IMG/VR virus record: IMGVR_UViG_2851976983_000001
Span: 32,001-96,000 of that record
Strand: one strand, 5' to 3'
DNA: 64,000 bases
Source of the DNA: a virus
Lineage: Duplodnaviria; Heunggongvirae; Uroviricota; Caudoviricetes
Shown: positions 4,264 through 64,000 of the stretch, one piece after another
Layout of the letters: the number at the start of each line of letters is the position of its first letter
Numbering within the stretch: the stretch's first letter is position 1
The notes under the pieces: generated by a model
Told to the model about the DNA's origin: nothing
Databases searched by the model: none
Seen by the model: the letters and a program-made list of their open reading frames with translations, nothing else
Made by a program: the position numbers and the translations under genes

Positions 4264-4289
4264 AAGGCGGCATTAGCCGCCTTTTGCAG
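4264..4289 (+). terminator. intrinsic terminator-like hairpin GGCGGC-ATTA-GCCGCC + TTTT
   Basis: Perfect 6 bp GC stem followed by a T-run directly after the 74 aa ORF. Confidence 0.5.
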
Positions 4290-4319
4290 AAACTGTCCAA
4301 CTATCTTCAAAGGAAAACT

Positions 4320-4883
4320 ATGGCGCTTTATAACTTCACTCTGACGCTCTCAGGCGTATCGTATGAGACGGAAGGACTGGAAGACGCGCTGTACCAAAAC
4401 GGCTGTGACGATGCGCTAATTTGCGCATATGGAAACTCCGTCTATGTAGAATTTGACCGCGAAGCACAATCACTTGATGCAGCTATCGCATCTGCGGTCG
4501 ACAATATTGAATCAGCCGGTATCGGTGCAATTGTTGAATCCGTCGACTCGGCTCTTGTGGGCTTAAGCGATATCGCGGAACTGACAGACCTGTCTCGCCA
4601 GGCAGTGGCGTTGCTCAAAGACGGTAAGCGCGGAAGCGGCGACTTCCCTTGCCCTGTACAACGCATAAAAGGCCAGTCTCCTCTCTGGGATTGGGCTGAT
4701 GTGGCTGAATGGCTCATGAATAACGGACGACTTAAAGAGGGCGATCAAATTGTCCAAAATGCCCGAACTTTGAGTAAATGGAATCTGGCGCTTCGAAACA
4801 GCGTCTCGAAAGATTTCAACGAAATAGAGCAAATTGCGGAGAAACTGATTAAACGCCGCAAAGATATTGCGAAATGCGCATAA
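4320..4883 (+). CDS. DNA-binding protein with AlpA-like C-terminal HTH (HicB-like antitoxin candidate)
   Basis: ATG 4320 with AGGAAAA RBS (the track's longer version starts at TTG 4284 inside the terminator hairpin); C-terminal LSRQAVALLKDGKRGSGDFPCPVQRIKGQSPLWDWADVAEWL matches the AlpA pattern. Confidence 0.5.
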   Translation: MALYNFTLTLSGVSYETEGLEDALYQNGCDDALICAYGNSVYVEFDREAQSLDAAIASAVDNIESAGIGAIVESVDSALVGLSDIAELTDLSRQAVALLKDGKRGSGDFPCPVQRIKGQSPLWDWADVAEWLMNNGRLKEGDQIVQNARTLSKWNLALRNSVSKDFNEIEQIAEKLIKRRKDIAKCA

Positions 4884-5212
4884 TGATGCCCGCCAATTGG
4901 CGGGCATCTGTTCTCTGTAAAGGTGTCTGGCATCGTCTGGTTCGTTAACGTTTACTAAACCAATGGTGACAAAAATTAGTTATCTTTGAAAAATAAAGGT
5001 TGCATGAAAAGAAGGGGTATGCGTTAATAGCATCGTTGGTTTGCAAGACAGACCTTATGTAAGCAGTTTTAGTAAAGCAGTCTCAGTTCAGTGTTATCTT
5101 CTGATTTCCCTTCTTCGTGAGTCTCCTCCTTAAGTGCCTAAGTAAGTCCCAATCTATACAGATCAAATTCTCGCCGCACTATGTGGCTCACAAAATTAAG
5201 AAGGTAATATCT

Positions 5213-5428
5213 ATGTCTAATAAAATGACTGGTTTAGTAAAATGGTTTAACTCTGATAAAGGCTTTGGCTTTATTTCTCCTGCTGATGGCAGTAAAGATG
5301 TTTTTGTACATTTTTCGGCAATTCAGAGTAATAATTTCCGCACTTTGGAAGAAGGCCAGCAGGTCGAATTCTCTATCGAGAATGGGGCTAAAGGCCCAGC
5401 AGCAGCAAATGTCGTTGCTCTAAGCTGA
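5213..5428 (+). CDS. cold-shock protein, CspA family
   Basis: [38 protein letters not shown]... is near-identical in pattern to enterobacterial CspA/CspB; AAGAAGG RBS; about 330 nt ORF-free leader upstream. Confidence 0.9.
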
Positions 5429-5731: not shown

Positions 5732-8700
5732 TTACTTATTTATTGTCTCCGCGATATCAGCCAGAATGGCCTCCAGTCGCTCTCCTTCTTCCGGTCGGAA
5801 GTACAGGATATTCGGGTTAAATCCGTAGAAGACGGTTGCATCAAGCTCTGGGAAGTACTCCTTACGACCAATCAGATCTGATGGTTTACTCTTATTGTTA
5901 AATAGTGCGGTTGAACGACTACCACACGTCAAAATGTAGGTTGGTCGTACAAGATTAATTTCTTCCCGCATAAAGTCTGTGAACTGGCCTATCTCGTCTT
6001 TGGTATAGTCTTTCTCTTTGTCCTTAACCTTCTTACAAACACCCGTGACATAAAGATCGCCCATGCGCAGATCTCCAACTGTCAGTAGTTTTGCCTTAAA
6101 GTCGTCGTATCCGTTCTCCATGAAGTAGCCGGTACGAGCGTCATTGCCGTTCGCATTGTCCAGAATGATCATGATTTTGGGTTTAATACCAATAGTCGGG
6201 CGTATCAACTCCTCACCCAAGCCCATTTCAGCCGCCATACGTGTCATGAGTACGTTGATTTCGGCAGAACGCTTAGGATTCATTTCGAACGGACGTGATG
6301 CTTTAACAGCGTCAATGATGAGATTGCCCATCAGTTCAGCCTGGTCGCGCAGTCGTTCAGGATCAGTTGCTGGCAGACTGCCTGGCTCAATTGACGCAAA
6401 AGCCCCTACTTTATGAAGCGACTCGCGTACACGACTGTTACATGCACGCTTCTCGACCGCTTCATCGAATTGTGCCACTGACTCGAATTTGCCACCAACT
6501 TTCTCACGCGCACGCATAATTGCCTGACAACCATTTTCAGAACAGCCTTTCACAGCAGAGAATGGCGCATACAGTGCCTGACTGCCGTCTTCGAGTGTGC
6601 GGATCTCAATTCGGTTAGATGACACATTAACGTCTGGTGGCAATACGCGAATGCCATAGGTCAGCGCATCCTTCACCAGCCCCTGATGCTTATCCTCGCC
6701 CAGAATGGTGAGCGCAGCTGCGAAGAACTCAGCAGGGTAGTGCGTCTTTAGCCACATAGACTGATAACTGATTAAAGAATAAGCAACGGAGTGTGATTTA
6801 TTGAACTGATAGGCTCCGTTTTTCTCAAATGCAGTCCATATCTCTTTTGCCTTCGTCTCAGACAGACCTGGATGTGACGTTGTAACGCGCACAACTGGCA
6901 TTGGCAGCTTCACTCCATGCTCCAACGCCTCTTCAACTGTCCTCAGAGTACCGTCCTCGCATTTAAAATGTTCTGCGCGATGAATCCGTTGTATTGCGCC
7001 ATTTTCAAGCTCTACGTCGATCCACCCAGCTTGAGCCTGAATGACAAATTTCTCACCCATGCTCCTCATCTTTTCCATGTTCTTCTTACCGATTGCTGAA
7101 CGCACACCATCCGCCTCGGCCATTGTGAAACCAGCAAGAAGCCTTGTTGCGTTCATCGTTTGTTCCTGATAGAGAATCACTCCATTTGTTTCAGAGGTCA
7201 GTTCATCCAAGACAGGATGTAGTGATGTAGGCGTCATAAATCCTTTCGCAACGGAAACATAGTCATCCAACATGCCGGATTGAATCGGTCCCGGTCGGAA
7301 GAGGGCGGTAGTTGCGACAACGGTTTTGAAACTCATTGGCTCGATGCCACCGCCCAGATCTTTAAGCAGCTTACGCATGGGGCCGGACTCCAGCTGGAAT
7401 ACGCCCTGCGTGTACCCTGCAGCGAACCCATCCAGAACCTTGCGATCGTCCAGTGGGATAGCGTCGAGATTGATGTCTTCACCGGTACTCTCTTTGATGT
7501 AGCGTTTCGCGCTATCCAGAAGATCGAGTGTTGCCAGACCGAGAACGTCCAACTTAATCAGCCCCATCGCCTCGCAGTAACGTTTATCGAACGCAATACA
7601 TCGAGCATTGCCACGCAGCTCGACGGGCGTGCGCTCTACTAATGGAACGCCAGCGACGATCATCCCCGCAGCGTGACGACCAAAACCACGCATCAGGCTT
7701 TGCAGCTTACACGCCGCTTTGAACGCTTCCGGGTTTTTCGTGGCGTATTTGTCCAGGCTGGCCAGTTGCTCGCGCAGCTCTTCCAGAGACAGGCTGTCGT
7801 CCTCCATATTCTTGAACTCTTTGGATACCGCCATATCCGCAGCATCGACACCGTAAATACGTGCAGTGTCACGCAGCGCAGATGCCGCGCCCAGATAGGT
7901 GAAGTTCGGAATGCCTGCAACGTAATCTTCGCCGTAGCGTTCATTCAGATACTCGATCACCTCATGGCGACGTGCCTGGCTGAAGTCCAAGTCCGCATCC
8001 GGCAAGTCGAGACGCTCAGGGTTGATGAAACGCTCAAACAGAAGACCGTGACGGATTGGGTCGACGTTGGTTATGCCTATGCACCACGCCACCAGAGAAC
8101 CGGCAGAGGAACCACGACCAGGCCCGACAGGAATGCCAGTTTCACGGCTGTGATTCATCAGATCGCGTACCATCAGGAAGTAACCACAGAATCCCAGGCG
8201 AGTCAGCGTGTCCATTTCGTACTTTAGCCGCTCAACATAAACCCTGTTCTCAGAAGCAGGTGGTGTGTATCCAAACTCTTTTGTGGTAAGACGTTTACGC
8301 AGCCCTGCAACAGCCAGTTTCATCAGCGTTGCAGGTTCGTCGTCTGCCATCTTGGGCAGTGCTGGTGGCAATTCATGCCAGCGCCATGTGCAGGCATCGA
8401 TAATGGAGTCCTGCGTTGTTGAGGCCATTGCAGCTGTTACCGGCACATCCATGCGAACGGAGAAGGCTTTAAGCGCCTCAAGGAGATGGCGACGACCATT
8501 GATGGCGTTATCTCGCTGGTGGGGGATACGCAGACGATGCGGCTGGTCGATTTTTATGTTGTTCGTAACCATGTGCGCAATGTCTTTAATGTCTGCATCG
8601 TCGATCGATTCGTAATAAGCGGGATAGAACGCCACTGGCTCTATTTTCAATGCGCTGGCGACTTTCATCGCCCGGACGTTAATCTGGTCGTAGAATGGGG

Positions 8701-9250
8701 TAGGGTGCGGATAAACCACACTATAGAAGTTGTCTTTTCCACCCGCTGTAATCAGTGTGCTTATGATTTTTGCAAAATCGTTGCGTTGGAACACGCTACC
8801 GATGTCGGAAGTAAGCAGGATGATGTTACCTTTGGCATATGTAGAAACCAACTGTTCGAGCGAGAGACGCGGTACAAAGTAGAACTGTTCTCGTGTGTTG
8901 GCCGCCGTCATTAGTTCGCAGATGTCGCGATATCCTTTCTCATTTTTAATTAGAGCGGTAAACGAGTAGTTACGTCCTCGCTCCAATGATTCCATACATC
9001 CCTTAGACTCTTTAGCAAGTTTAGCCCGGTGCTCGTATGTGGGATCATCAACGATGTTTAGTTTCACACCACAAATAACCGCCATGTCGTCACCAGCGGC
9101 ACGTTGTAGTGGAATAACGCTCGCAATATTCATGCTATCTGCTGAAATTACAGCGGTGTAGCCAGCTTCTCTGGCAATCTTCACCGCGTTTTCTGCTTTT
9201 AAAGCCGACTCCCCAAGTGAGAAGTCAGTTCGAACCATCAGTGCCTTCAT
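5732..9250 (-). CDS. DNA polymerase III alpha-type (DnaE-like, PHP domain) replicative polymerase
   Basis: 1172 aa; motifs GPGRGSSAGSLVAW, LLFERFINPER, FQLESGPM, ALFRPGP, ILYQEQ, FNKSHSVAYSLISYQSMWLKTHYPAEF align with E. coli DnaE core motifs. Confidence 0.85.
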   Translation of the reverse strand: MKALMVRTDFSLGESALKAENAVKIAREAGYTAVISADSMNIASVIPLQRAAGDDMAVICGVKLNIVDDPTYEHRAKLAKESKGCMESLERGRNYSFTALIKNEKGYRDICELMTAANTREQFYFVPRLSLEQLVSTYAKGNIILLTSDIGSVFQRNDFAKIISTLITAGGKDNFYSVVYPHPTPFYDQINVRAMKVASALKIEPVAFYPAYYESIDDADIKDIAHMVTNNIKIDQPHRLRIPHQRDNAINGRRHLLEALKAFSVRMDVPVTAAMASTTQDSIIDACTWRWHELPPALPKMADDEPATLMKLAVAGLRKRLTTKEFGYTPPASENRVYVERLKYEMDTLTRLGFCGYFLMVRDLMNHSRETGIPVGPGRGSSAGSLVAWCIGITNVDPIRHGLLFERFINPERLDLPDADLDFSQARRHEVIEYLNERYGEDYVAGIPNFTYLGAASALRDTARIYGVDAADMAVSKEFKNMEDDSLSLEELREQLASLDKYATKNPEAFKAACKLQSLMRGFGRHAAGMIVAGVPLVERTPVELRGNARCIAFDKRYCEAMGLIKLDVLGLATLDLLDSAKRYIKESTGEDINLDAIPLDDRKVLDGFAAGYTQGVFQLESGPMRKLLKDLGGGIEPMSFKTVVATTALFRPGPIQSGMLDDYVSVAKGFMTPTSLHPVLDELTSETNGVILYQEQTMNATRLLAGFTMAEADGVRSAIGKKNMEKMRSMGEKFVIQAQAGWIDVELENGAIQRIHRAEHFKCEDGTLRTVEEALEHGVKLPMPVVRVTTSHPGLSETKAKEIWTAFEKNGAYQFNKSHSVAYSLISYQSMWLKTHYPAEFFAAALTILGEDKHQGLVKDALTYGIRVLPPDVNVSSNRIEIRTLEDGSQALYAPFSAVKGCSENGCQAIMRAREKVGGKFESVAQFDEAVEKRACNSRVRESLHKVGAFASIEPGSLPATDPERLRDQAELMGNLIIDAVKASRPFEMNPKRSAEINVLMTRMAAEMGLGEELIRPTIGIKPKIMIILDNANGNDARTGYFMENGYDDFKAKLLTVGDLRMGDLYVTGVCKKVKDKEKDYTKDEIGQFTDFMREEINLVRPTYILTCGSRSTALFNNKSKPSDLIGRKEYFPELDATVFYGFNPNILYFRPEEGERLEAILADIAETINK

Positions 9251-9434
9251 GTGTTTTTACCTTTCTGGTTTTTTTGATTTTGTCATTTGGGAAGCCTACG
9301 AACTTCCCATGCATCGAAATCGCAACTTCTTTTGCTGATTGGTGACAATCGGGCTTGTCTGGACACACCAGACAAGCCTTACCAGTTTCAGAAGCAGCGA
9401 TAAGAGAGCCGAAACATCCTTTACGCACGATCAA
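9225..9434 (-). CDS. small Cys-rich hypothetical protein (69 aa)
   Basis: ORF track; bridges the CobS-like and polymerase genes with overlaps; CxxC-like pairs. Confidence 0.3.
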   Translation of the reverse strand: MIVRKGCFGSLIAASETGKACLVCPDKPDCHQSAKEVAISMHGKFVGFPNDKIKKTRKVKTHEGTDGSN

Positions 9435-10666
9435 CCAAATATTTTTTGAACAACTTCACGAGCCGCTTGTGCAGAAGCTGAAGGGAGTTTGTTAATGAAA
9501 GAACGCTCAATACCTGTCACAAAGTCGCCTCGCATCATTCCAATCTTGGCCGACAACAAAAGTTCACGAGGGCCAATTGGCTGACTGATAAGGTGTTCTT
9601 CGTATCCATCGCGAACGATACCGGCAAACTTAACCATCTTTTCTGCGTATTCATCCACGATACCGGCATTTATCAACATGTTGATCTCTGCCTCTTTGCT
9701 CATGTATTTCACATTCGAAACGATGCCAAAACGCGAAAAGTTCGCGGCGTTCTGGATGTTTGTACCCTGGTACAAGCCGGTTTCATCACCAGATCCGTTC
9801 GTGTTGCCAGTGCCAATGAAAGCAAACCGTTCATGCGGAGTAATGCGACGCCATTCTGGAGTCGCCTCTTTGATGACTAACGCTTCACCTTCCAGCACTG
9901 GCTGATACACGCCAAGAATTTGTGGAAACGCAAAGTCGTATTCATCCGCGAGGTAAACCCAGCCATGCTTCATTGCGAGCGCAAGCAAGCCAGGCTCGAA
10001 ATACGTAGAGCCATCACGCGCCAGAATTTGCCCCGTAACATGTGCCTCTTCCATTGATGCTGTATGTTGGGCACGGATCAACGGACGATTGAGCAAAGCA
10101 CATAGTTGTGTAGGCAATGACGATTTGCCTGTTCCTGCATGACCCCACAAATAGCCAGGTATGCCAAGTTCAAGCATCATGAAAATGTCTTTGATCAGTT
10201 CGAAGTCGCCATATACGTATCCCTTCTTCACTTCTGGAACGAACTCTGGAAACGGCGTATTGACGTTGACGCTAACCATGAGCGGCGTCCCACGTTTTGT
10301 TCCGAGTTCTTTCACCGTTACATTTAGCAGTTCGTGAGCTGCGACCAGATCTGTCTTGTACTCAACTGTGCCTGTGTAGCCTGGGCTACTGGTCACGCCA
10401 GATGATTTGGCCATTTCGCTTTTTTGCTCGGCACGTTTAGCTTGAATTGCATCAAGTGCCTTTTTCGATAGCGTTGGCTCATCTGGAAACTGTGTTGTGT
10501 ACATTTTCAGTACGGTGTCAGGATCGGCATCTTTTACTGACTCAGGAATGCCCTCGCAATTACCATTGGCTACATGGGACTTAAAATAGTGAAATGATTT
10601 TCCGCACCACTTGCAAACAAGGTAATCAGAAGGATTTTTTTCATTTTGCAGTGCAGTAGTAGTCAT
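9431..10666 (-). CDS. AAA+ ATPase, MoxR/CobS-like
   Basis: 411 aa; Walker A GHAGTGKSS; N-terminal Cys/His cluster; paired with downstream vWA protein. Confidence 0.75.
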   Translation of the reverse strand: MTTTALQNEKNPSDYLVCKWCGKSFHYFKSHVANGNCEGIPESVKDADPDTVLKMYTTQFPDEPTLSKKALDAIQAKRAEQKSEMAKSSGVTSSPGYTGTVEYKTDLVAAHELLNVTVKELGTKRGTPLMVSVNVNTPFPEFVPEVKKGYVYGDFELIKDIFMMLELGIPGYLWGHAGTGKSSLPTQLCALLNRPLIRAQHTASMEEAHVTGQILARDGSTYFEPGLLALAMKHGWVYLADEYDFAFPQILGVYQPVLEGEALVIKEATPEWRRITPHERFAFIGTGNTNGSGDETGLYQGTNIQNAANFSRFGIVSNVKYMSKEAEINMLINAGIVDEYAEKMVKFAGIVRDGYEEHLISQPIGPRELLLSAKIGMMRGDFVTGIERSFINKLPSASAQAAREVVQKIFG

Positions 10667-10761: not shown

Positions 10762-12870
10762 TCACTTTAAAATGATACGAGATAGTTCAGTAACTACAGA
10801 TGAACCAAGACTATCAACGCTCGTTACCAGGGCATGTTTTGAGTAAAATCTCTCCGGTGCGTCAGTCATGATGCCAATTGCCATCAAATCAATGTCAGTC
10901 TGCGTTTCAATTTGCTTCGCAACCGAACGCAAATGAGCGTCAAAACCTCTCCCAACAGCCCACGGCGCGCCATCACTCAGAACAAGCATGATCTTCCTGT
11001 CCTCCATGCGACCGGAAAATAACGATGCAAGGCTGGCTATGCTTTCACCATCCACGTTATTAAGAAGTGGGAATGTGTAGCCTACGCACCCCATACGTGA
11101 GCGAACTTCGCGAGAATTTACCTTTTCATTCCAATTTTTGATGATAGGTAGCATTAAAGATTCAAAGCGAGAGAACTCATACTTGACAGCCTTAAGTTCT
11201 CCTGCCGCCATATGACTACCAAATGTAGTGAAGCCGGTGATAATGTTGGGAACATTTATTCGATCAAGGGCATCGGCGATGGTATATGCACTTGCAAGAG
11301 CCAATTGTATCGTTATACCACTCATTGAACCTGATAAATCAATCACTTGTTGAACACAGGCGTTAACGGCTTTAGATTCTTCTTTTTTACGAAACACGCG
11401 ATCATCATTCATTGCTAATCTGTAGATACTAGAACCATGAATGCGCCCCCGACGCTGGCCCGGTATAAACTGAACTCTGTTTCTGCTTGCTATTGCTCGC
11501 TCCAGGTCTTTTGCCAGCGTCGACGAAACACCTGACGAAAGATGCTTTTCAATATATTTGTCGAAGAGCTGGTTGCCTTCAGGAACGATGCGATAGCGGC
11601 TGATTGGATATCCTCCTAAATCAATATCGGAGAATGTTTTAATAAGCCGTTTGATATGGGCTTCTGCCTGATCAATCGAGCCGATGAAGTCGTATGAGCG
11701 ATTGTATGGCCTGTATTCGCTTTTCGAGCTTTCTGTTAACTCGCTTTTAATCGTTTCGGATAGAGCATCTTCTGTCATGCCTCCGACTTCATCTTCTATG
11801 CTATCCAGCTCCTCTAAAGCCTCTTCCAGACTCATTTTTGACGGAGTTGGGATATCTGAAGAGCCGTCTTCTGTCGTTTTTCTTTTTTCGTGGTCAGCGG
11901 TTAATGATTCTGACGCCGCGTTATCAGAAGCATCAGAATCTGATACCTCTTTATCATTTTCTGTATCATCGAATATTGTTTCTGATGATTCAGAATTATC
12001 TGAATCATCACTGTCATTATTATCATGTTTGTACTTACTGTGTGACTCTGGTTTGATAGATTTGTGATTATCTAGCGATGAGGGTGTCTCATGATCTTCG
12101 TCGTCTTCATTGTTTTCTCCAGAGGCATCCGTCTGGTCAGCGTCTGAAGGATCGGAAGTTTTTCCCGGAGCTGACTCCTTACCTTTGCTTTCACTTTCAG
12201 TGTCTTTGAGGATCTTAGCTATGGTCGCAGCCACCTTTACACAATCCTCGGTGCAAGACATGTTACGCACGGCCACATCGATACCATGTTCTTTTAATAA
12301 TGAAATTGGTTTCTCAATGACAGGCCAGTATTCATCCATGAAATCTACGAACGGTGCTTGGCCATCCCAGGCTCTTACAACCGGACAGAGAAAGAAGTTT
12401 AGAAAAAGCGCGCGCTGATCTTTGCCACAATAAGCAATAGCCTCTGAAGCCTTTGGTTTAAAGACTTTTTCGATTATAAGGCGTTGAGTTGCCATCAGAT
12501 TACGTCTTGTTCCGTTAAAGACCTGCCCCATTTTTCGCTCGATGAACACGTCTTCTAAGGCATTCCATAGCGACCAGGAAGGAACGCGTCCTTTTTCTCT
12601 CATTTTGTTGGACACACGAATATCGGTAAACAAAATGTGAGCAACCTCATGATCGAGAAATCCGCGCACAGCATTCATCAATGCCGGTGTTGCGTTATCC
12701 GGGATTGATGGGATGTTTACGAGAATTGGCTCTCCATCATCGTTATAGCGTACATAAGCGTCGTCTCCTCGTTCTGCAACAGGGATGTTTTTACCTGAAA
12801 GGAGAGCGACTACTCGTTTTACACTGTCACGGAAGTCCTGAACCTCTTTGATGGAACGTTTTTTAGACAT
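10762..12870 (-). CDS. von Willebrand factor A domain protein (CobT-like) with long acidic linker
   Basis: 702 aa; MIDAS-type motif VIDLSGSMSG in the C-terminal part; about 120 aa Asp/Ser/Glu-rich linker. Confidence 0.75.
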   Translation of the reverse strand: MSKKRSIKEVQDFRDSVKRVVALLSGKNIPVAERGDDAYVRYNDDGEPILVNIPSIPDNATPALMNAVRGFLDHEVAHILFTDIRVSNKMREKGRVPSWSLWNALEDVFIERKMGQVFNGTRRNLMATQRLIIEKVFKPKASEAIAYCGKDQRALFLNFFLCPVVRAWDGQAPFVDFMDEYWPVIEKPISLLKEHGIDVAVRNMSCTEDCVKVAATIAKILKDTESESKGKESAPGKTSDPSDADQTDASGENNEDDEDHETPSSLDNHKSIKPESHSKYKHDNNDSDDSDNSESSETIFDDTENDKEVSDSDASDNAASESLTADHEKRKTTEDGSSDIPTPSKMSLEEALEELDSIEDEVGGMTEDALSETIKSELTESSKSEYRPYNRSYDFIGSIDQAEAHIKRLIKTFSDIDLGGYPISRYRIVPEGNQLFDKYIEKHLSSGVSSTLAKDLERAIASRNRVQFIPGQRRGRIHGSSIYRLAMNDDRVFRKKEESKAVNACVQQVIDLSGSMSGITIQLALASAYTIADALDRINVPNIITGFTTFGSHMAAGELKAVKYEFSRFESLMLPIIKNWNEKVNSREVRSRMGCVGYTFPLLNNVDGESIASLASLFSGRMEDRKIMLVLSDGAPWAVGRGFDAHLRSVAKQIETQTDIDLMAIGIMTDAPERFYSKHALVTSVDSLGSSVVTELSRIILK

Positions 12871-56185: not shown

Positions 56186-56466
56186 TCATCAATCACTTCC
56201 ATAGCGAAGGTGAAGATCTGCTGGAGTTGCGGAACAGTCAGTTTTTCAAGAACTTCGTCAGGTACTGAAGGGATAACCTTACGAACCAGATCTGCATAAG
56301 CTGTCACTTGCTCAACAGGAGACATGTTCATGAGATCTTTACCTTCCATCTGCTTGATGGAAACGAACAGACCTACCGTCATTTCAACGATGGGATATTC
56401 CTGACCGCCAAATTTGATGCTTTTCTTCGGAGGCAGAATGGAATCGAGATCGAGTAATTTGGTCAT
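56149..56466 (-). CDS. tail assembly chaperone G-like
   Basis: 105 aa acidic protein between major tail and tape measure genes. Confidence 0.6.
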   Translation of the reverse strand: MTKLLDLDSILPPKKSIKFGGQEYPIVEMTVGLFVSIKQMEGKDLMNMSPVEQVTAYADLVRKVIPSVPDEVLEKLTVPQLQQIFTFAMEVIDEENEKAAGEGAK

Positions 56467-56521
56467 TGGTTAAAATCCTTTTAAAAGAGAGGCCCATCCT
56501 GAGCCTCTGCTTAATTACTGA

Positions 56522-57304
56522 TTAATCTGCGGGGTTAATCGTTACTGATTTAGTTGCCTTCTTACCACCGCTATTGCTGGTGAAGGAGATATTTGTAGAA
56601 CCCTGCGCCACACCACGTACCAGACCCGTTTGATCTACCGTGGCCTTTTCCTGGTCTTCGGATTCCCAAACACCGGTTTTGTCTGCGGCATCAGCTGGAG
56701 TGATTTCGGCTGTCAGTTGCACAGTTTCTCCAGCTTTTACGGTTGGAGATTCCGGTGCGATCGACACAGTTTTTACCGGTTTAGGGCCGCTCATTCTTCC
56801 CAGAACGCCTTCGTCATCAGGGTATGCGCTGAACTGAACAGAGAACACACGAACATCATCAGACTGGTAGGTCATAGTGAAGTTGCCCGCGGTTGCCGCT
56901 TTCGGGATGGTCAACACATAGTCGGTGGTGTCCTGCGGAGTCAGAACCAGCTCCTTCGCCACATCAATCAGGTTAACGCCCTGTGCAGATGTGATCGTGA
57001 CAGAGTTGTCATCTTCGCTCAGAGTAGAACCAGGCATCAGGTCAACCATGTTTTGGAGTACAGACTCAGCCAGAGGCGCGGTGATGGTAATGTTGCGCCC
57101 CTGAACTAATTCGGAAATTACGGTCTGCCCCAACTGATCGACGGTGACTTTCAGTGTTTCAGTGGCTACTTCAACCTGAACACCACCTTTGGTGTAACCC
57201 AAATCCACACCACCAAACGACACCTTACAGGCACCAAGTTTGATGTTTTTTACATGGGTATTAGACATTGATGGAAAACTCCTTTTTCCGTTAATTCTAC
57301 GCAT
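56522..57304 (-). CDS. major tail protein with C-terminal Ig-like (Big_2) domain
   Basis: 260 aa; C-terminal Ig-like repeat similar to those in the 59928 ORF. Confidence 0.65.
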   Translation of the reverse strand: MRRINGKRSFPSMSNTHVKNIKLGACKVSFGGVDLGYTKGGVQVEVATETLKVTVDQLGQTVISELVQGRNITITAPLAESVLQNMVDLMPGSTLSEDDNSVTITSAQGVNLIDVAKELVLTPQDTTDYVLTIPKAATAGNFTMTYQSDDVRVFSVQFSAYPDDEGVLGRMSGPKPVKTVSIAPESPTVKAGETVQLTAEITPADAADKTGVWESEDQEKATVDQTGLVRGVAQGSTNISFTSNSGGKKATKSVTINPAD

Positions 57305-57316
57305 TCATTGCGCTAA

Positions 57317-57336
57317 TAGTAAGTATATACTTACTA
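57317..57336. promoter_or_regulatory. perfect 20 bp palindrome TAGTAAGTATATACTTACTA upstream of major tail gene
   Basis: Read directly; member of dispersed motif family. Confidence 0.45.
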
Positions 57337-57342
57337 ATTGAG

Positions 57343-57849
57343 TTAATTCAATAAATAGCCAGCAAATTCAACAGGAATGCCTGCTTCTATTAATGCCCCA
57401 TCATTTTTGGGATAAATGATTGGCATCGCCATCGGTCGAACAAGTCGAAAATAAACACCACCAGATTCCGTTTCCTCTACTGGAAACATCTCAATGATTT
57501 TATTGGCTTTCTCAACCGTCGTAGTAATTGACGAACCACGCACAATTATTGTGAATGATTCGTGGTAAAAGCCCTGTAGCTCATGATCGATGCTGATACC
57601 GGTATTTGGGTTAATAAGCAGGACGCCAGATTTCACATTGGCAGGCAAGTAGTGACAGAAAATGTCAGTCCCGACCGTGCCAATCTTTGCCTTCTGCATC
57701 AAACTTGCAAACGCTTCAATAAACACATTAACCTCTCGTAAAACCGGCTTTTCTGGCAGCCTCAAGAATCGCTTCTGAGAACTGCTTCTCGCTAATTTCC
57801 ACCGCTCTTTCCAGAAAGTGTGGCCCAACACGAGGTTTAACACCGGCAA
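57343..57849 (-). CDS. tail completion / head-tail joining protein candidate
   Basis: Position and size only. Confidence 0.35.
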   Translation of the reverse strand: MPVLNLVLGHTFWKERWKLARSSSQKRFLRLPEKPVLREVNVFIEAFASLMQKAKIGTVGTDIFCHYLPANVKSGVLLINPNTGISIDHELQGFYHESFTIIVRGSSITTTVEKANKIIEMFPVEETESGGVYFRLVRPMAMPIIYPKNDGALIEAGIPVEFAGYLLN

Positions 57850-58201
57850 TTGGTGGGTTTGTCACGTTCTTCATTCGAGAAAGATAACCGAGTCGGTATT
57901 TACCCAGCTCCATGTACTTAGCATAGTCACCTACTTCTACGCCCGGATGCCCCTGACGTGGTTTTGCTCCAGACACAGAAAGCTCAATACGCAGCCCTGA
58001 ATAACCTTCTTTAATCACCCTGGCAAAGATGGCTGTCTCCAGAGATCCGGTTTCCAGCGGGGCCATTGCACGGCTGAGACGCTCAACCAAACGCGCCAGC
58101 TTTTCCATGTCCCGAATAAGATATCGCTTAAATGCTTTCTGGCTGTTGTTGAGTCGATTCCCCGCACGTTTGAACTGATGCGCATCGTATTTCAGACCCA
58201 T
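57728..58201 (-). CDS. head-tail joining protein candidate
   Basis: Position only; overlaps neighbour in track. Confidence 0.35.
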   Translation of the reverse strand: MGLKYDAHQFKRAGNRLNNSQKAFKRYLIRDMEKLARLVERLSRAMAPLETGSLETAIFARVIKEGYSGLRIELSVSGAKPRQGHPGVEVGDYAKYMELGKYRLGYLSRMKNVTNPPIAGVKPRVGPHFLERAVEISEKQFSEAILEAARKAGFTRG

Positions 58202-58632
58202 ATATTCGCCCCTACTTCAAGATGCCCTGGTCTTCCTCGTAGCCCCCAGCGGCGATGAACACTGGACACCTTTAATTTTTGACCTTCAAGGATCAGTACA
58301 TCATCAAGTTGTACAGCCGCTTCCAAAGGGACAACTAACACAGCATCAAACAGCTCCAGACTCGCCTTACCACGACTACCAGAGCTATCAGCACGAACTG
58401 ACGATTTCTCATTACTCTGTTCGAACTTAACCACGCCGACATTCGTCTTCCTGACGAATTGTAATTGCGCCTCACCGTAAACGTTCTTTGCGCCAAAGCG
58501 GTAGATCGCAATTTCTGTTTGCCATGAAATATTCATGCTCTCTCCCTGTTGTTGTCGGTCGCTCTCATTACTGGCCAAAAACCCTTTAGACCAAAAGTAA
58601 ATAATGCGACTGGCGTTACGCACGGCGAACAA
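58192..58632 (-). CDS. head-tail connector protein candidate
   Basis: Position only. Confidence 0.35.
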   Translation of the reverse strand: MFAVRNASRIIYFWSKGFLASNESDRQQQGESMNISWQTEIAIYRFGAKNVYGEAQLQFVRKTNVGVVKFEQSNEKSSVRADSSGSRGKASLELFDAVLVVPLEAAVQLDDVLILEGQKLKVSSVHRRWGLRGRPGHLEVGANIWV

Positions 58633-59449
58633 TCATACGGTTGTTGATGTAACTGACCAGCAAGCGCCAGGTACTGCGAGCCACATGCACGTTTGCAGCT
58701 TTACCGGTACGGTACATGTTGGTTGTTTCACCGATTGACTCTGACAAAATGCCATCCTCTCGTGCTGCGGCAACATCATTGCCATTTGCGATCTCACACG
58801 CTTCGTTGACAACGGCAAGCATCAACGCTTCTTTGAAGTAGTCAGGGAACTCTTCAAACTTCTCCTGCGTCATCTTTTCCCAATCGACTAAATCATGCCG
58901 GTACGCTCCATCTGCTCCCCACGGAATGTCATACACATTCAGCATATTTTGAGGGCGATCGTATCGGTCAAAGTCGATACGTAGAATTTTGCGGATTGAG
59001 AACGGTAAAGTTTTAATTCGTCTGGTAGCCTCAATGAGACGCTTGCGCATTAAGCCTTCACCATCCGACAGCAAAGTGTCCCCATTCAGCATATCGATCG
59101 CCTGCATTTGAGCATCAGCGACAGTTGCAAACGACTGTTCTGGTATCGACAGTTCAAAACTATTCAGCAGAACATACATTTGCCGCTCTTCATGCATCAG
59201 ACCCGATGCAACAGCCTTCACAATGACGTACCGCAGATCGCGTTCTTTCTCAGAGAGCTGGTTATATTCAGCCGACACGACAACCGGAATCGACATTTGA
59301 CCGCTGGTGATTTCTAGCGGCTCGCCATCAACGAGAATAGCCCCGGTGCTGTCCTTTACTGTGTAGGTAGCAGATTCGATATCCAGCACGTTGAAGGCAA
59401 ATGAAAGGGAAACAGCTTCACCGCTACGATACGAGTCGATCTGCGCCAT
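58616..59449 (-). CDS. hypothetical structural protein (277 aa)
   Basis: Position only. Confidence 0.35.
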   Translation of the reverse strand: MAQIDSYRSGEAVSLSFAFNVLDIESATYTVKDSTGAILVDGEPLEITSGQMSIPVVVSAEYNQLSEKERDLRYVIVKAVASGLMHEERQMYVLLNSFELSIPEQSFATVADAQMQAIDMLNGDTLLSDGEGLMRKRLIEATRRIKTLPFSIRKILRIDFDRYDRPQNMLNVYDIPWGADGAYRHDLVDWEKMTQEKFEEFPDYFKEALMLAVVNEACEIANGNDVAAAREDGILSESIGETTNMYRTGKAANVHVARSTWRLLVSYINNRMIVRRA

Positions 59450-59883
59450 TACTCACCGCCTTGTGCTTTCAGGATGCCTTCAATCATCTCGACAATTCCT
59501 TTCGCTTTGACACCAACCTGATTACCAATCACACGTAGACCGGCAATGCCTTCATTGTCTGCAATTGACTCCAACTCTTCTCGTGTGAAAGTCTGGATCT
59601 GTTTGGCCGGTTCATCTGGTGTCCCACGTTTCATTGGCACAATGTCAGGTGCTGCTGGCTCGGTAATCAGGTCTGCGGTCAACTCGCCACGATCACTGTA
59701 TGCGGCAGACGGAGAAACATTTTTGCCCTCGACTGTTGATGCTCGCATTGAGGCACAAATCCTTTGCTGATCGATAAAAGGCAACTCCGCTACGGACACC
59801 CCGTTCTCGAACTGAACGCCGCACAACATTCCCGAATAACCGGAAAATTGCGGTTCTAATAAAACAATTTTTGCTGGTTTCAT
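59449..59883 (-). CDS. hypothetical structural protein (144 aa)
   Basis: Position only. Confidence 0.35.
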   Translation of the reverse strand: MKPAKIVLLEPQFSGYSGMLCGVQFENGVSVAELPFIDQQRICASMRASTVEGKNVSPSAAYSDRGELTADLITEPAAPDIVPMKRGTPDEPAKQIQTFTREELESIADNEGIAGLRVIGNQVGVKAKGIVEMIEGILKAQGGE

Positions 59884-59927
59884 AACGCATTCTCTCTACA
59901 TGGGCGGCTTTCGCCGCCCAATATTGA

Positions 59928-60848
59928 TTATTCCTGTGCAGCAGTGACTTCTACGGTCGCTGTCGCTTTGTGGCTACCATCTTGGGTAGTAACCTCGATT
60001 GTGGCAGTACCAGCCGCAACGCCAGTTACAACACCGGTTTCGCTATCCACCGTTGCAAACTCGGTATTTTTGGATTCCCAAGTAACGGTTTTATTTGTTG
60101 CTCCTGCCGGCTCGACATTTGCGGTCAGCTGAACAGTTTTGTTTGCCTCAACGGTTGTGCTATTTGGGTCGATTTCGACGCCGGTAACAGCCACAACAGG
60201 CGCAGTTACTTCCACCGTTGCAGTTGCCTTTTTGCTGCCATCTTGGGAAACGATCTCAATCGTCGCAGTGCCAACTTCTACACCAGTAACGTTCCCGCTC
60301 TGGTCTACCGTTGCCTTATCTTCATTTTTGGAAGACCAGGTAACAGCCTTATTCGTCGCATTTGACGGCTGAACATTCGCTTTCAGACTGACTGATTTCC
60401 CTTTCTCAACAGACGTTGATTCTGGCGTTACCGTTACGGATTGAACGGCTACCGGATTTACGGTGACTTCCACTGAAGCGGAAAGCTGGGTTTCCTGATC
60501 AGTTGCAGTAATTTTTACTTTGCCTGGTGCTACGCCAGTTACTAATCCAGTGCCGTTAACGGTTGCAATTTGGTCATTGGCTGACTTCCAGGTGAATGAA
60601 CTGGCACTCTTACCCATACTAATACCTGCACTAAGTTGAACAGTTTTCCCAACCAAAACTGACGGTGAAGCCGGGGTTATGTTTACGGATTGGGAGAGGG
60701 GAACCGCCTGCAAACAAGCAGATAGCTGACTTTGTTGCCGCTCGGTTAAAGGTTCATCGGAGATAGAATTGGTAAATCCGGCACGGCACATATGCCCCGT
60801 AAAATCCGAAAATGCCTCTTCCGTAATCTTCATCTTTTGTTCTGGCAT
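59928..60848 (-). CDS. Ig-like (Big_2) repeat protein, head decoration candidate
   Basis: Three tandem repeats of the pattern VxVTPxSxxVxxGxxxQLxAxVxPxxATNKxVTWxSxN...ATVDxxGxVTGV. Confidence 0.6.
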   Translation of the reverse strand: MPEQKMKITEEAFSDFTGHMCRAGFTNSISDEPLTERQQSQLSACLQAVPLSQSVNITPASPSVLVGKTVQLSAGISMGKSASSFTWKSANDQIATVNGTGLVTGVAPGKVKITATDQETQLSASVEVTVNPVAVQSVTVTPESTSVEKGKSVSLKANVQPSNATNKAVTWSSKNEDKATVDQSGNVTGVEVGTATIEIVSQDGSKKATATVEVTAPVVAVTGVEIDPNSTTVEANKTVQLTANVEPAGATNKTVTWESKNTEFATVDSETGVVTGVAAGTATIEVTTQDGSHKATATVEVTAAQE

Positions 60849-60862
60849 TTCTCGCTCCTACA

Positions 60863-60889
60863 AAAAGGGTGGGCGTATAGCCCACCCTT
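60863..60889. repeat. hairpin AAAGGGTGGGC-GTATA-GCCCACCCTTT between capsid and decoration genes
   Basis: Perfect stem just upstream of the AGGAG RBS of the decoration gene; possible partial terminator. Confidence 0.4.
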
Positions 60890-60921
60890 TAACATAGATA
60901 ACTACTTATCTACTACACTGA

Positions 60922-61797
60922 TTAAATTTTTACATTGGTCAGTGCAGCGATAGCCTTATCGTGCTTATTCGCCAGAGAGCAGTACCACTTCACACGGGTA
61001 CGTACTGCGTCTTTGTTCTGTACAGTACCAATGTTTTCAACAACGATACCTGCGTTGTCGCCGCCATACAGACCAGTAACGCCGTTCTCTTCTGACAGAT
61101 GCAGGCAGTAGATGCTTGCTTTGCCAGAATCGGTCGGGATGAAGTCGTTGATGATGAACGGAACGCCGTTATGACACAGCATCGGACGACCGAAGTTCTC
61201 CATCATGATTTCAGACGGACCTACGTTTACTGTACGCAGCAGCGCACGGTAAGCACGCAGGTGCTCTGAACGCATCATGATGCAGTCAGCACCAAGATCT
61301 TTCACCGCATCGACCAGTTCGTCGAACATAGAGAAAGTCATAGATGCACCGGCGATATCGATCTTCTGATCTGCGTGCATCAGGCGTGGAATGCCGTCAA
61401 ACGCCTTGTTGTTGGAGCTGGAGTCACCCAAAATCAGGTTGCGACGGAACGCACGAGCCAGACCTTTAACTTTCTGACGAACCTGAATAGCCAACTGGTT
61501 GTTGGTGTCGGCCATAGTGGTCGCCAGGAATTTATCAACGTCTACGTCACCTGCCAGAATACGCAGTTTCGCAACGCATTCTTCGAAGGTTGCTGCACCT
61601 TCAGGGATGGTGTCGTTAACGTCGATGAAGGTAGCTTCACTCAGCGTTTTTTCACGGTTGTACAGATATGCCTTTGAATTAATTTTCATAAAAGGCAGGA
61701 TGGCAAACAGGTCATCGCGATCGATGATGGTTTCAATCACGCCCTGTTCAAGTTCGTTGTTAGACAGCTTTTCAGCTTCTTCACGCAGTAATGGCAT
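60922..61797 (-). CDS. major capsid protein candidate
   Basis: 291 aa directly downstream of scaffold-like gene; no motif confirmation. Confidence 0.5.
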   Translation of the reverse strand: MPLLREEAEKLSNNELEQGVIETIIDRDDLFAILPFMKINSKAYLYNREKTLSEATFIDVNDTIPEGAATFEECVAKLRILAGDVDVDKFLATTMADTNNQLAIQVRQKVKGLARAFRRNLILGDSSSNNKAFDGIPRLMHADQKIDIAGASMTFSMFDELVDAVKDLGADCIMMRSEHLRAYRALLRTVNVGPSEIMMENFGRPMLCHNGVPFIINDFIPTDSGKASIYCLHLSEENGVTGLYGGDNAGIVVENIGTVQNKDAVRTRVKWYCSLANKHDKAIAALTNVKI

Positions 61798-61822
61798 CTA
61801 TCAATTCCCTTTGATTTAGATG

Positions 61823-62710
61823 TTACTTAAGTCCAATTTTCCCCAGACCGGAGGCCAACTTATCCATAGTCGACTTGTTCTTCGGTTGGGATATTGTGTA
61901 GGTCGATTTGGAATGTGAGCCTACACCCTGCTTGGCTTCGCTACGCATCAATGCGTCAGCTTCCGGATCTGCCCGCACAATGCGTTCAATCGCGGATTCA
62001 AACGGCAACGGCTTACCTTCACCGTCAACCAGAACAGCTCGTTCTTTGTGACCTGCCGGTTTGTCATAACCCACTACGCTACCGTCTTCACCCACTTCAA
62101 AATGAGAACCGTAGATCACGCGGGCTTTTGCCGGAGTCATCAGAACTTTGTCACGTAGGAAGAGAGAGTTACTGAAGGAAGCGCCCACGGTCATCTCGAC
62201 TAATTGAGATTTCAGTGATGCGTTTTCACTTTCCAGTGCTGCATAACGTTCGTCACGCTGTGCCAGCTCTGCCTGGTGTGCTTCGATCATCTGTTTTTTA
62301 ACAGCATCGAACTCACCACGACGCTCCAGTTCAGCTTGCTCCGCCTCACGACGTGCGTTTTCTGCGGCCTGTTCAGCTTCTAAAAGCTGGCGAGCACGAG
62401 CCGGATCGATATCACCGTACTGAGCAAGCTGATCGGCCAATGTGCGCTCTTTCTCTTTGCGCTTCATGTTCTCCTTCAGCAGTTCAGCACCAGCTTTCTT
62501 GGTTTTACGAAGTTCGGCCAGTAACTCTTCCTGAGTCATGCCAGCGTATTCGTCATCGCCCTTCGGCTGCTCTTTTTGTTCACCCTGTTTGTCAGGATCT
62601 TGTGTACTCTGCTCATTATCAGCAGCTACACCGCCAGCGCCTCCACGCTCATGCGCTTCAGCGACATCCATCAGACCACGACGGGCCAAAAGCATTTGCC
62701 ACAGATTCAT
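61823..62710 (-). CDS. scaffolding protein candidate
   Basis: 295 aa, highly charged Glu/Arg/Ala-rich helical repeats. Confidence 0.5.
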   Translation of the reverse strand: MNLWQMLLARRGLMDVAEAHERGGAGGVAADNEQSTQDPDKQGEQKEQPKGDDEYAGMTQEELLAELRKTKKAGAELLKENMKRKEKERTLADQLAQYGDIDPARARQLLEAEQAAENARREAEQAELERRGEFDAVKKQMIEAHQAELAQRDERYAALESENASLKSQLVEMTVGASFSNSLFLRDKVLMTPAKARVIYGSHFEVGEDGSVVGYDKPAGHKERAVLVDGEGKPLPFESAIERIVRADPEADALMRSEAKQGVGSHSKSTYTISQPKNKSTMDKLASGLGKIGLK

Positions 62711-62731
62711 AAAAATTCCTTTTGTTACTTA

Positions 62732-64000
62732 TCACTCGTTCTCTTGAGTAGATGAGTCCCCATTCCCTCGGGGTTGATCTTGCCCGCTTTCTTGGGCTGC
62801 ACCACGATCATAAGTAAGTACTGACTTATTTTCAAGGGTATTTAGATCATTTTTTGGAGGAAAATTCAAGAGATCTTTATCAAATTCCTTTTTCATCGCC
62901 TCAGTAATGTTCGGGAAAATCTTCTCAATAAGCATTTCCATCTGGTGACGACGTACAGAGTCCGGTGCCTGAAGTAATGACAGTTTCTCGGCAACAGAAA
63001 ATTCATCAGTAAGGCCACGAATATCGAAACTTTCTGGATACGCAATTAAAGAGTGGTCTTCGTCCAGATCTACCCCCATCCATTTCGCAACCAGTAGCAT
63101 GATTTGGCGTTCAGCCCTTTCCAGACGCTCTGCTTTTGTGACAAGCAAGCTATTTACACGCTGGAAGTCATACATTTTTGCGGCACCAGATGAGTTATCG
63201 ATTCCCTGTGCGTTGTCCTGCTTCGTTCGCTCACCAGCTACACCAACTGAATGGTAGATTTCGTTAATCACCGTCTTAATCGTAGTGATGATCATCTGAG
63301 CTTGTTTCGGGTCTGGTGACAGATAAAACGGCTGGTTTCCACCTTCAGAATCGTAGGTGAAGACTCGCTTTGTGCCCATTTCAAGCACTTTAGTGTGGTT
63401 TTCATCACCAGGTAAAAGCGACTGTACTGGTATAGCCAACTGGCTAAATGTCTGATCCTGAATAATGGCATCAAGGTTTGACAGATAGTTTGCAACCGCA
63501 CGATCAAGATAAGCGATATCATCGATCAACGATGGGCTGAAATACGGTGATTCACTTTCTCCAATACAATCAACAGGAAACACAGGAACTACGCCGAGAT
63601 TATGCTCACCGCTATCCTCTAAAATAACTTTTGCCTGACGGCGACCTGCTCCACCAGCGCCCTTCTTCACTTCCTCACGGAACAGATACCACTCGTTTTG
63701 TGTCCACAGACGATAACGTTGGTATTCCTGACCTGTAGAAGTAAAAGGATCTGCGTCATCGCGAGCGACTTCCACAATTAACGCCCATAACATATTCCCG
63801 TCGTCGTCCCATGCCACATCCAGCATTTGCTGAGGTGAAATCCAGTAGGCGTAGGCGCGAGCATCTTTCTTTTTCTCGTCAGCTACTGACTCAACATCAC
63901 CACTCATCGTGCTATCGACAACAACCCATATGCGACCGTAAATAGACGACTGCAAATCAATAGCGGCCATAAATGAGTCAATAGAGGCATTCTGGCGAGT
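62732..64000 (-). CDS. portal protein candidate (5' end may extend beyond window)
   Basis: Track ORF 62732..63970; the frame stays open to the window edge upstream of the ATG. Confidence 0.5.
   Translation of the reverse strand, partial: TRQNASIDSFMAAIDLQSSIYGRIWVVVDSTMSGDVESVADEKKKDARAYAYWISPQQMLDVAWDDDGNMLWALIVEVARDDADPFTSTGQEYQRYRLWTQNEWYLFREEVKKGAGGAGRRQAKVILEDSGEHNLGVVPVFPVDCIGESESPYFSPSLIDDIAYLDRAVANYLSNLDAIIQDQTFSQLAIPVQSLLPGDENHTKVLEMGTKRVFTYDSEGGNQPFYLSPDPKQAQMIITTIKTVINEIYHSVGVAGERTKQDNAQGIDNSSGAAKMYDFQRVNSLLVTKAERLERAERQIMLLVAKWMGVDLDEDHSLIAYPESFDIRGLTDEFSVAEKLSLLQAPDSVRRHQMEMLIEKIFPNITEAMKKEFDKDLLNFPPKNDLNTLENKSVLTYDRGAAQESGQDQPRGNGDSSTQENE

Follow-up and report, generated by a model that had tools for sequence, protein, structure and literature searches.

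A DnaE-type DNA polymerase with a uracil-DNA glycosylase-like C-terminal domain in an SSU5-like phage-plasmid of Escherichia coli

We describe a DnaE-type DNA polymerase gene located in a 64,000-nucleotide stretch of DNA (positions 32,001 to 96,000 of the IMG/VR virus record IMGVR_UViG_2851976983_000001; hereafter, the window). The open reading frame (ORF) occupies positions 5732..9250 on the minus strand, starts with ATG, and comprises 1172 codons followed by a stop codon. Its product is a real, intact DnaE-type enzyme of an SSU5-like phage-plasmid of Escherichia coli, in which the C-terminal part has the fold of a uracil-DNA glycosylase (UDG). In the model that we favor, with a probability of roughly 0.7, the protein would be a competent family-C polymerase with a structural PHP domain and a UDG-like tail, proofread in trans by a DnaQ-like exonuclease and serving the replication of the element itself.

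Polymerase family, domain layout, and host replicon

The family-C assignment draws on Pfam, PHROGs, profile comparisons with the Protein Data Bank (PDB), and the annotation of the plasmid gene. The Pfam domains follow one another in the order PHP (PF02811; aa 6-176, E = 5.7e-13), DNA_pol3_alpha (PF07733; aa 309-571, E = 3.6e-73), DNA_pol3_finger (PF17657; aa 574-740, E = 1.8e-43), and HHH_6 (PF14579; aa 866-955, E = 3e-16), and phrog_405 (“DNA polymerase”) covers the protein end to end. In nucleotide coordinates, all on the minus strand, the PHP region as delimited by PF02811 together with residue and family alignments spans 8381..9250 (aa 1-290), the palm/thumb core, defined by PF07733 and alignments, spans 7538..8326, and the fingers domain spans 7031..7531. 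These are followed by a 52-aa insertion in the fingers (6872..7027; aa 742-793), the end of the fingers with its YQFNKSH motif and the (HhH)2 “beta-binding” domain (6386..6871; aa 794-955), a junction segment with conserved residues R966, Q970, L973, and R986 (6278..6385; aa 956-991), and the UDG-family-4-like C-terminal domain (5735..6277; aa 992-1172).

The nearest solved structures are the DNA polymerase III (Pol III) alpha subunits of Thermus aquaticus, Mycobacterium tuberculosis, and E. coli (E = 4e-121 to 1e-108), and the match to PolC is far weaker. An AlphaFold model of the full-length protein, built with 60 family members, has a pLDDT of 90.4 and a pTM of 0.83; it matches the Pol III alpha structures 2hpi, 2hnh, and 5lew (E = 3e-59), with a TM-score of 0.84 against the E. 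coli Pol III alpha core. Both Pfam and the fold match place the PHP, fingers, and (HhH)2 domains in the canonical family-C order. An earlier note, made from the sequence alone, had proposed an element-encoded Pol III alpha-type polymerase with a PHP domain, and this is borne out by the Pfam domains, the PDB relatives, and the AlphaFold fold match. The domain annotation that it called for recovers the PHP domain, polymerase core, fingers, and (HhH)2 domain in Pfam, with the OB fold being absent; neither Pfam nor alignment yields a match to the OB fold or to the tau-binding C-terminal domain of DnaE.

Alignment to the E. coli enzyme identifies D418 and D420 (codons within nt 7991-7999) and D568 (nt 7547-7549) as the counterparts of the catalytic residues D401, D403, and D555. 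Two alignments, of 45 and of 60 family members, show no variation at the 3 aspartates or at the adjoining dNTP-binding residues (45/45 and 60/60). Because the active-site aspartates are all present and invariant across the family, the possibility that the gene is a degenerate copy, which their loss would have indicated, fails, and the polymerase looks catalytically competent as judged from its residues.

Compared with cellular DnaE1, the protein shares the core of PHP, palm, thumb, fingers, and (HhH)2 domains, is identical to E. coli alpha in approximately 34% of the aligned columns, and keeps the catalytic aspartate triad and the dNTP-binding residues. It differs from cellular DnaE1 in the absence of the OB fold and the tau-binding domain, in showing no recognizable canonical clamp motif, internal or C-terminal, in the extra 52-aa insertion in the fingers, and in scoring below the cutoff of every DnaE equivalog model in NCBIfam. 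The superfamily model TIGR00594 is the only NCBIfam model passed by the whole protein (623.8 bits against a cutoff of 434); with the DnaE1-type equivalog NF004226, it scores 672 bits against a cutoff of 1002, and it falls still further under the cutoffs of the remaining DnaE equivalogs.

At the nucleotide level, the gene is 94.6% identical to that of Escherichia phage Cyrano and 86.7% identical to that of Salmonella phage SSU5, both of which annotate it as “DNA polymerase III alpha subunit,” and 100% identical to dnaE (WP_001717301.1) of the E. coli plasmid p503829_100. Window positions 1-32284 and 56284-64000 are 99.99% and 100% identical, respectively, to that plasmid. Of 5426 complete E. 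coli genomes, 241 have a homolog; together they contribute 247 occurrences, each of them (247/247) on a plasmid. Considering these identities, the match to p503829_100, and the plasmid-only homologs, the element is an SSU5/Cyrano-type phage-plasmid of the SSU5 supercluster, as far as sequence comparison can assign it; consistently, it combines phage structural genes with RepA and ParAB plasmid genes on a replicon of ~100-110 kb and displays near-identity and synteny with SSU5 and Cyrano.

The polymerase family includes thousands of sequences from Escherichia, Shigella, Klebsiella, Enterobacter, and Xenorhabdus, with more distant members in Aeromonas, Vibrio, Shewanella, and Ralstonia, many of them on contigs of ~100-115 kb. 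The same replication module is present in ~105-122-kb phages of Pseudomonas, Rhizobium, Stenotrophomonas, and Xanthomonas, so that this type of polymerase is not confined to enterobacterial phage-plasmids. In Pseudomonas phage nickie (NC_042091.1, locus L013), the genes follow the order helicase, primase, ligase, cobT, cobS, dnaE-UDG, SSB, FEN, RecA, SbcCD, RuvC, ribonucleotide reductase (RNR), thymidylate synthase, DHFR, and dnaQ.

The replacement of the OB fold and C-terminal domain by a UDG domain is an architecture already known since 2014, and the gene itself is already annotated. Timinskas, Balvociute, Timinskiene, and Venclovas (NAR 2014, PMC3919608) reported an “unusual variant” of DnaE that they left unassigned; Yersinia pestis and Salmonella enterica carry it as an additional polymerase, and a UDG domain of the archaeal type takes the place of its OB fold and C-terminal domain. 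The polymerase described here is a member of this DnaEX group and shows no essential difference from it: the layout of PHP domain, Pol3 core, (HhH)2 domain, and PF03167-type UDG domain is shared, and so are the replicon type and the synteny, and SSU5_052 and CYRAN_49 of Cyrano are annotated examples. A 2026 survey of bacterial polymerases (PMC12926913) makes no mention of UDG. To the description of DnaEX, the present analysis adds the family-wide non-canonical PHP ligands, the altered UDG motifs, the intein-like relic in the fingers, the split-gene relatives, and the strict co-occurrence with a DnaQ-like exonuclease.

Replication module, DnaQ-like exonuclease, and state of this copy

We propose that, in SSU5/Cyrano-like phage-plasmids, the phage-type replication module has this enzyme as its polymerase subunit. 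The enzyme would serve the element’s own replication, whether lytic or recombination-dependent, in partnership with the DnaB-like helicase, primase, gp32-like SSB, UvsY/RecA-like proteins, FEN, and ligase of the element, and the plasmid state would be maintained by RepA and host Pol III.

The putative proofreading partner, which the earlier note had missed, is encoded elsewhere in the genomes of intact relatives. In Cyrano, CYRAN_77 is a 185-aa DEDDh exonuclease (RNase_T, E = 2.5e-21), the gene of which lies ~26 kb from the polymerase gene. We searched 50,697 phage records with aa 960-1172 of the polymerase (the junction and the UDG-like domain) and with the exonuclease: the polymerase C-terminal region was detected in 31 records and a homolog of the DnaQ-like exonuclease in 36, with all 31 of the former contained within the latter (31/31). 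The co-occurring records belong to phages of Escherichia, Salmonella, Klebsiella, Pseudomonas, Rhizobium, Stenotrophomonas, and Xanthomonas. From this strict co-occurrence, we infer a two-subunit core resembling that formed by alpha and epsilon, in which the separate DnaQ-like exonuclease is the likely proofreader. Proofreading in trans by the DnaQ-like protein would probably involve its binding to the degenerate PHP domain, in the way that epsilon docks on E. coli alpha.

Several points weigh against this model. Co-occurrence is the one line of evidence for a physical link between polymerase and exonuclease, the assignment to lytic rather than plasmid replication is deduced from gene content only, and our literature search, which extended to papers on the polymerases of pHCM2 and pMT1, recovered no biochemistry for the polymerase. 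In addition, the conserved Q970-x-x-L-M occupies the place of the internal clamp motif of E. coli alpha, and the enzyme could conceivably use the host beta clamp through it. Finally, because D1031 (58/60) and N1145-P1146 (54/60 and 56/60) of the UDG pocket are strongly conserved, some glycosylase or base-flipping activity of the UDG-like domain is possible.

The model also has to be set against the condition of the element at hand. In p503829_100, a region of ~17.7 kb corresponding to Cyrano 66,065-83,757 has been replaced by IS100; the genes located therein encode RuvC, RNR, MazG, ThyX, DHFR, and the DnaQ-like exonuclease. Since the replaced region is the one holding the DnaQ-like gene, p503829_100 has the polymerase without its presumed proofreader, and a tblastn search of that plasmid with the Cyrano DnaQ-like protein returned nothing significant. 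Within the window, the tail-tip (J-like) gene on the minus strand is split into parts at 47008-48681 and 40679-43786. The interrupted stretch (43755-46886, plus strand) contains IS100, an IS21-family insertion sequence (IS) with IstA and IstB (43843-45647), and an IS3-family element with OrfA and OrfB (45673-46886); the second copy of IS100, which took the place of the ~17.7-kb region, lies outside the window (NZ_CP025870.1 93793-95594; 33794-35595 of locus L006). Given the IS100 replacement and the splitting of gene J by two IS elements, a defect in the phage part of the element is probable, and this copy of the polymerase may be idle.

Phrased as an alternative, the gene would be an unused leftover, with the defective phage-plasmid being maintained by RepA and host Pol III. 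Both the replacement of the region with the DnaQ-like exonuclease, RNR, ThyX, DHFR, and RuvC and the disruption of gene J by IS100 and the IS3-family element speak for it. Nevertheless, the ORF is intact and its product is 96-97% identical to very large clusters of homologs. The IS events, moreover, may be recent, in which case no decay would be expected yet. On balance, we consider disuse in this plasmid a real, if minority, possibility.

Possible clamp contacts and the UDG-like C-terminal domain

The annotations of Cyrano, p503829_100, Pseudomonas phage nickie, and the region of SSU5 covered here list neither a clamp nor a clamp loader. A tblastn search of all compared loci with E. coli DnaN gave no match, although a very divergent clamp would escape such a search. 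The observation of the earlier note that the window holds no recognizable clamp, clamp-loader, or proofreading gene agrees with the annotation of p503829_100 and Cyrano, and tblastn searches with either E. coli DnaN or the DnaQ-like protein of Cyrano were likewise empty.

The whole protein was scanned for clamp-binding motifs by regular expression combined with conservation, and only 2 candidates emerged: QSGML at aa 657, which is not conserved, and QAELM at aa 970. Q970 is the sole conserved glutamine outside the catalytic core (57/60 members), and QAELM (aa 970-974, within RLRDQAELM), 19 aa past the (HhH)2 domain, fits the pattern QxxL[FLM]. The spacing of R966, Q970, and L973 (i, i+4, i+7) displays helical periodicity, and the segment 964-973 holding QAELM is predicted as a helix with a pLDDT of ~87. 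Pairwise MAFFT alignment pairs QAELM with the E. coli helix RAALM; in the profile comparison with the PDB, the stretch aligned to cellular DnaE does not extend past GAF(D), where the (HhH)2 domain finishes, and because it stops there, we assign QAELM neither the status of a homologous helix nor that of a clamp motif. The check for a conserved beta-clamp motif suggested in the earlier note thus turned up no canonical motif, the one conserved sequence that fits the pattern being predicted as helical and lying beyond the end of the profile alignment.

Reliance on host accessory subunits, which the earlier note had considered probable, is weakened by the absence of the OB fold and the tau-binding domain and by the scan for a canonical clamp motif, which found none. 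Docking of the polymerase on the host holoenzyme appears unlikely from its domain composition, and the enzyme would not be tied to the host clamp loader via tau. What survives of the idea is a more limited version, in which the polymerase would bind the beta clamp of the host, placed on DNA by the host clamp loader, through the conserved junction sequence Q970-A-E-L-M and thereby gain processivity. This version would account for the lack of annotated or detectable clamp and clamp-loader genes in the element and its relatives, and it gains from the conservation of Q970 as well as from the fit of QAELM to the pattern roughly at the place of QADMF in E. coli alpha. Against it stand the i/i+4/i+7 spacing and the confidently predicted helix, as opposed to a flexible extended peptide, the missing tau-binding domain and C-terminal clamp motif, and the end of the cellular DnaE profile alignment at the (HhH)2 domain. 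We regard clamp binding of this kind as rather unlikely.

Where cellular DnaE has its OB fold and tau-binding domain, the polymerase ends in ~180 aa (aa 992-1172), overlooked in the earlier note, that adopt the alpha/beta fold of UDGs with family-4 topology. The AlphaFold (AF2) model of aa 960-1172 has a pLDDT of 94.5 and, in Foldseek comparisons, matches the family-4 UDGs 4zbx, 1l9g, and 1ui0 (E of ~1e-11, TM-scores of 0.7-0.8; for 4zbx, E = 1.3e-11 and TM-scores of 0.73/0.80), followed by UdgX and then by TDG/MUG at E of ~1e-5. An hmmsearch of the PDB with a profile of 51 such C-terminal domains retrieved the same family-4 UDGs (E = 6e-20). The direct Pfam match to UDG is weak, and the NCBIfam model TIGR00758 (UDG_fam4) gives 29.5 bits, below its cutoff of 125.3. 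Among 1.84 billion sequence representatives, the UDG-like domain was found in 134 clusters (50% identity), nearly all of which carry it at the C terminus of either DnaE-type proteins (1080-1150 aa) or their split C-terminal halves (385-400 aa).

The domain shares its fold and colinear motifs with the family-4 UDGs of Thermus thermophilus (UDGA, 1ui0), Thermotoga maritima (1l9g), and Sulfolobus tokodaii (4zbx) and with UdgX, but differs from the family-4 enzymes at the catalytic motifs. Motif A changes from GEAPG to LDNAN, with D1031 as its aspartate; the uracil-reading Asn of TN(V)VKC is replaced by G1070; and the His of motif B, HP(A/S), is replaced by Asn, yielding N1145-P1146. None of the 4 aligned positions holds an Fe-S cysteine in this polymerase, and the 4 cysteines are missing in its clade; distant family members retain an Fe-S-type CxxC...C. 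Neither the motif-B His nor the uracil-reading Asn occurs in any of the 60 family members (0/60 for both), and the motif-A Pro, an Ala in this polymerase, is present in 44/60.

UDG domains on polymerases have precedent. In phages, SPO1-like and SP15-like PolA-UDG fusions are active, and N4-like forms have lost catalytic residues (bioRxiv 10.1101/2025.03.26.645540); the structural matches of the domain described here include many phage PolA enzymes, among them that of Bacillus phage SP-15. Phage PolA-UDG fusions and the poxvirus polymerase-UDG (E9-D4/E4) complex resemble the phage-plasmid enzyme in carrying a UDG-fold module on a replicative polymerase. They differ from it in that their polymerases belong to family A or B, whereas the phage-plasmid enzyme belongs to family C, and in that the module is N-terminal or a separate subunit in the PolA and poxvirus systems and C-terminal in the DnaE version. 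The N4-like PolA class, as the DnaE version, is missing the catalytic His and the uracil-reading Asn.

By analogy with these systems, the likely position of the UDG-like domain is on the template in front of the active site, where it would act as a DNA-binding or base-sensing module rather than as a standard uracil glycosylase. Alternatively, it might be an active DNA glycosylase that excises uracil, or a different base, from the template before the polymerase reaches it, as in the SP15-like PolA-UDG fusions set out in the preprint cited above. The family-4 fold is compatible with such an activity, as are the conservation of the acidic motif-A residue as Asp (58/60) and of the motif-A Pro in most members, the Fe-S cysteines of distant members, and the N-P form of motif B, which is akin to that of the MUG/TDG family, active without the His. 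Yet the motif-B His and the uracil-reading Asn are missing in 60/60 members, this polymerase has Ala for the motif-A Pro and no Fe-S ligands, its UDG_fam4 score is far under the cutoff, and the N4-like PolA enzymes illustrate that UDG domains of polymerases can persist without catalytic residues. Glycosylase activity is therefore unlikely on the evidence of the motifs, and we retain the module reading for the domain.

Proofreading, fingers insertion, and neighboring genes

DnaE2 accounts for about two-thirds of plasmid-borne family-C polymerases (Timinskas et al., PMC3919608), and a DnaE2-like, error-prone (mutagenic) polymerase on a plasmid would not be unusual in this respect. However, the error-prone model NF004225 gives 404 bits against a cutoff of 939, under the DnaE1-type score of 672 bits, no imuA- or imuB-like genes occur among the neighbors of the polymerase, and the gene is surrounded by phage replication and recombination genes together with cobT/cobS-like genes, SSB, FEN, and RecA, which leaves the mutagenic reading very improbable.

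The PHP domain was examined at the positions of its metal ligands by residue alignment to M. tuberculosis (Mtb) DnaE1, to the T. aquaticus enzyme (Taq), and to P0241, a family member with a canonical PHP motif. The ligands of Mtb DnaE1, which we take to be H14, H16, D23, H48, E73, H107, C158, D226, and H228, are numbered as reportedly described by Banos-Mateos et al. in 2017, and this numbering agrees with the computed alignment. In the phage-plasmid polymerase, the corresponding positions are occupied by M5 (H14), R7 (H16), E14 (D23), S39 (H48), K63 (E73), S96 (H107), S148/D149 (C158), P210 (D226), and Y212 (H228). The canonical residue is not kept at any of the 9 positions in any of 60 diverse family members (0/60). 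With no canonical residue at the 9 ligand positions, the PHP domain is most likely only structural, and proofreading by the PHP domain, which the earlier note had raised as an option, finds no support. A proofreading PHP exonuclease as in M. tuberculosis DnaE1, for which one could adduce the presence of the PHP fold (Pfam E = 5.7e-13) and the lack of an exonuclease gene in the window, is already contradicted by the non-canonical ligand positions throughout the family and by the separate DEDDh exonuclease in every phage record with this polymerase type, and we give it next to no credence.

E. coli DnaE lacks the 52-aa segment inserted into the fingers (aa 742-793), as do the family members P0116, P0117, and P0125. 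In the AlphaFold model, the insertion forms a beta-rich mini-domain, mostly of strands, with a pLDDT of ~88-94. Pfam gave no match to the isolated insertion, and a profile of it matched DnaE inteins in the PDB (7qil, E = 3e-5; 4qfq, 2keq, and 4kl5, ~5e-4; range to 8e-4), aligning with intein residues ~60-102, the block B region. A Smith-Waterman shuffle test against the N-intein (IntN) of Npu, for which a hand-entered sequence was used, gave z of 4.0-9.3; the PDB profile result is independent of that sequence. The top PDB matches of the profile, de novo TIM barrels, were judged spurious because they are sums of 4 short repeat matches; the intein matches, each a single stretch, are meaningful. 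The hallmarks of an intein are missing: the insertion, ~40 aa of which are Hint-like, has no N-terminal Cys or Ser, no C-intein, and no terminal His-Asn. Since the catalytic termini and the C-intein are lacking, we read the insertion as a probable relic of a Hint domain or intein rather than as a functional intein.

In relatives from Klebsiella, Enterobacter, and Xenorhabdus, the gene is split exactly at the insertion into parts of ~787 and 385 aa; where the C-terminal halves begin, no resemblance to the Npu C-intein was detected. The situation recalls the cyanobacterial DnaE split inteins (Npu, Ssp), of which N-intein residues ~60-102 resemble the insertion and which likewise coincide with a split polymerase. 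In contrast to the cyanobacterial inteins, the insertion lies ~21 aa upstream of their site, before YQFNKSH; considering the incomplete Hint fold, the absence of catalytic termini, and this offset, no splicing is expected. In the only split locus examined (L010, 1295-5407), a 184-aa ORF is located between the two halves, of 790 and 385 aa; it has no Pfam or PHROG match, and its designation as a homing endonuclease stays a guess.

Immediately upstream of the polymerase, on the same strand, are genes for a small Cys-rich protein of 69 aa (phrog_6337/3616; 9225-9434), which overlaps the polymerase start, a CobS-like AAA_5 ATPase (9431-10666), and a CobT-like VWA protein (10762-12870). The order cobT-cobS-small ORF-dnaE is kept in SSU5, a metagenomic relative (54% identity), an Aeromonas plasmid, and Pseudomonas phage nickie; in the split locus L010, only a truncated upstream gene of 372 aa, the small ORF, and the N-terminal part of the polymerase are seen. 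Just downstream of the polymerase, on the opposite (plus) strand, are a cold-shock protein gene (cspG in RefSeq; 5117-5428) and a gene for a helix-turn-helix (HTH) regulator (4284-4883), corresponding to plasmid positions 8039-9147. Cyrano carries a HicAB toxin-antitoxin pair at the cspG/HTH position, which marks this site as a variable cargo spot.

SSU5-like phage-plasmids are common in clinical Enterobacteriaceae. As a tentative extension, which we hold to be doubtful, the DnaE-UDG enzyme could be the family-C counterpart of the UDG-assisted replicases of family A (SP15/N4-like PolA) and family B (poxvirus): a self-contained polymerase, independent of clamp and tau, with a UDG-fold module gripping or scanning the template, a DnaQ-like proofreader acting in trans, and the CobT-like VWA protein, CobS-like AAA+ ATPase, and small Cys-rich protein as possible accessories. 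If this were true, a bacterial-type replicative polymerase would be able to work without the tau/OB tether, by means of a UDG-fold module and a separate exonuclease, and polymerases of families A, B, and C would each have acquired a UDG-fold module on their own.

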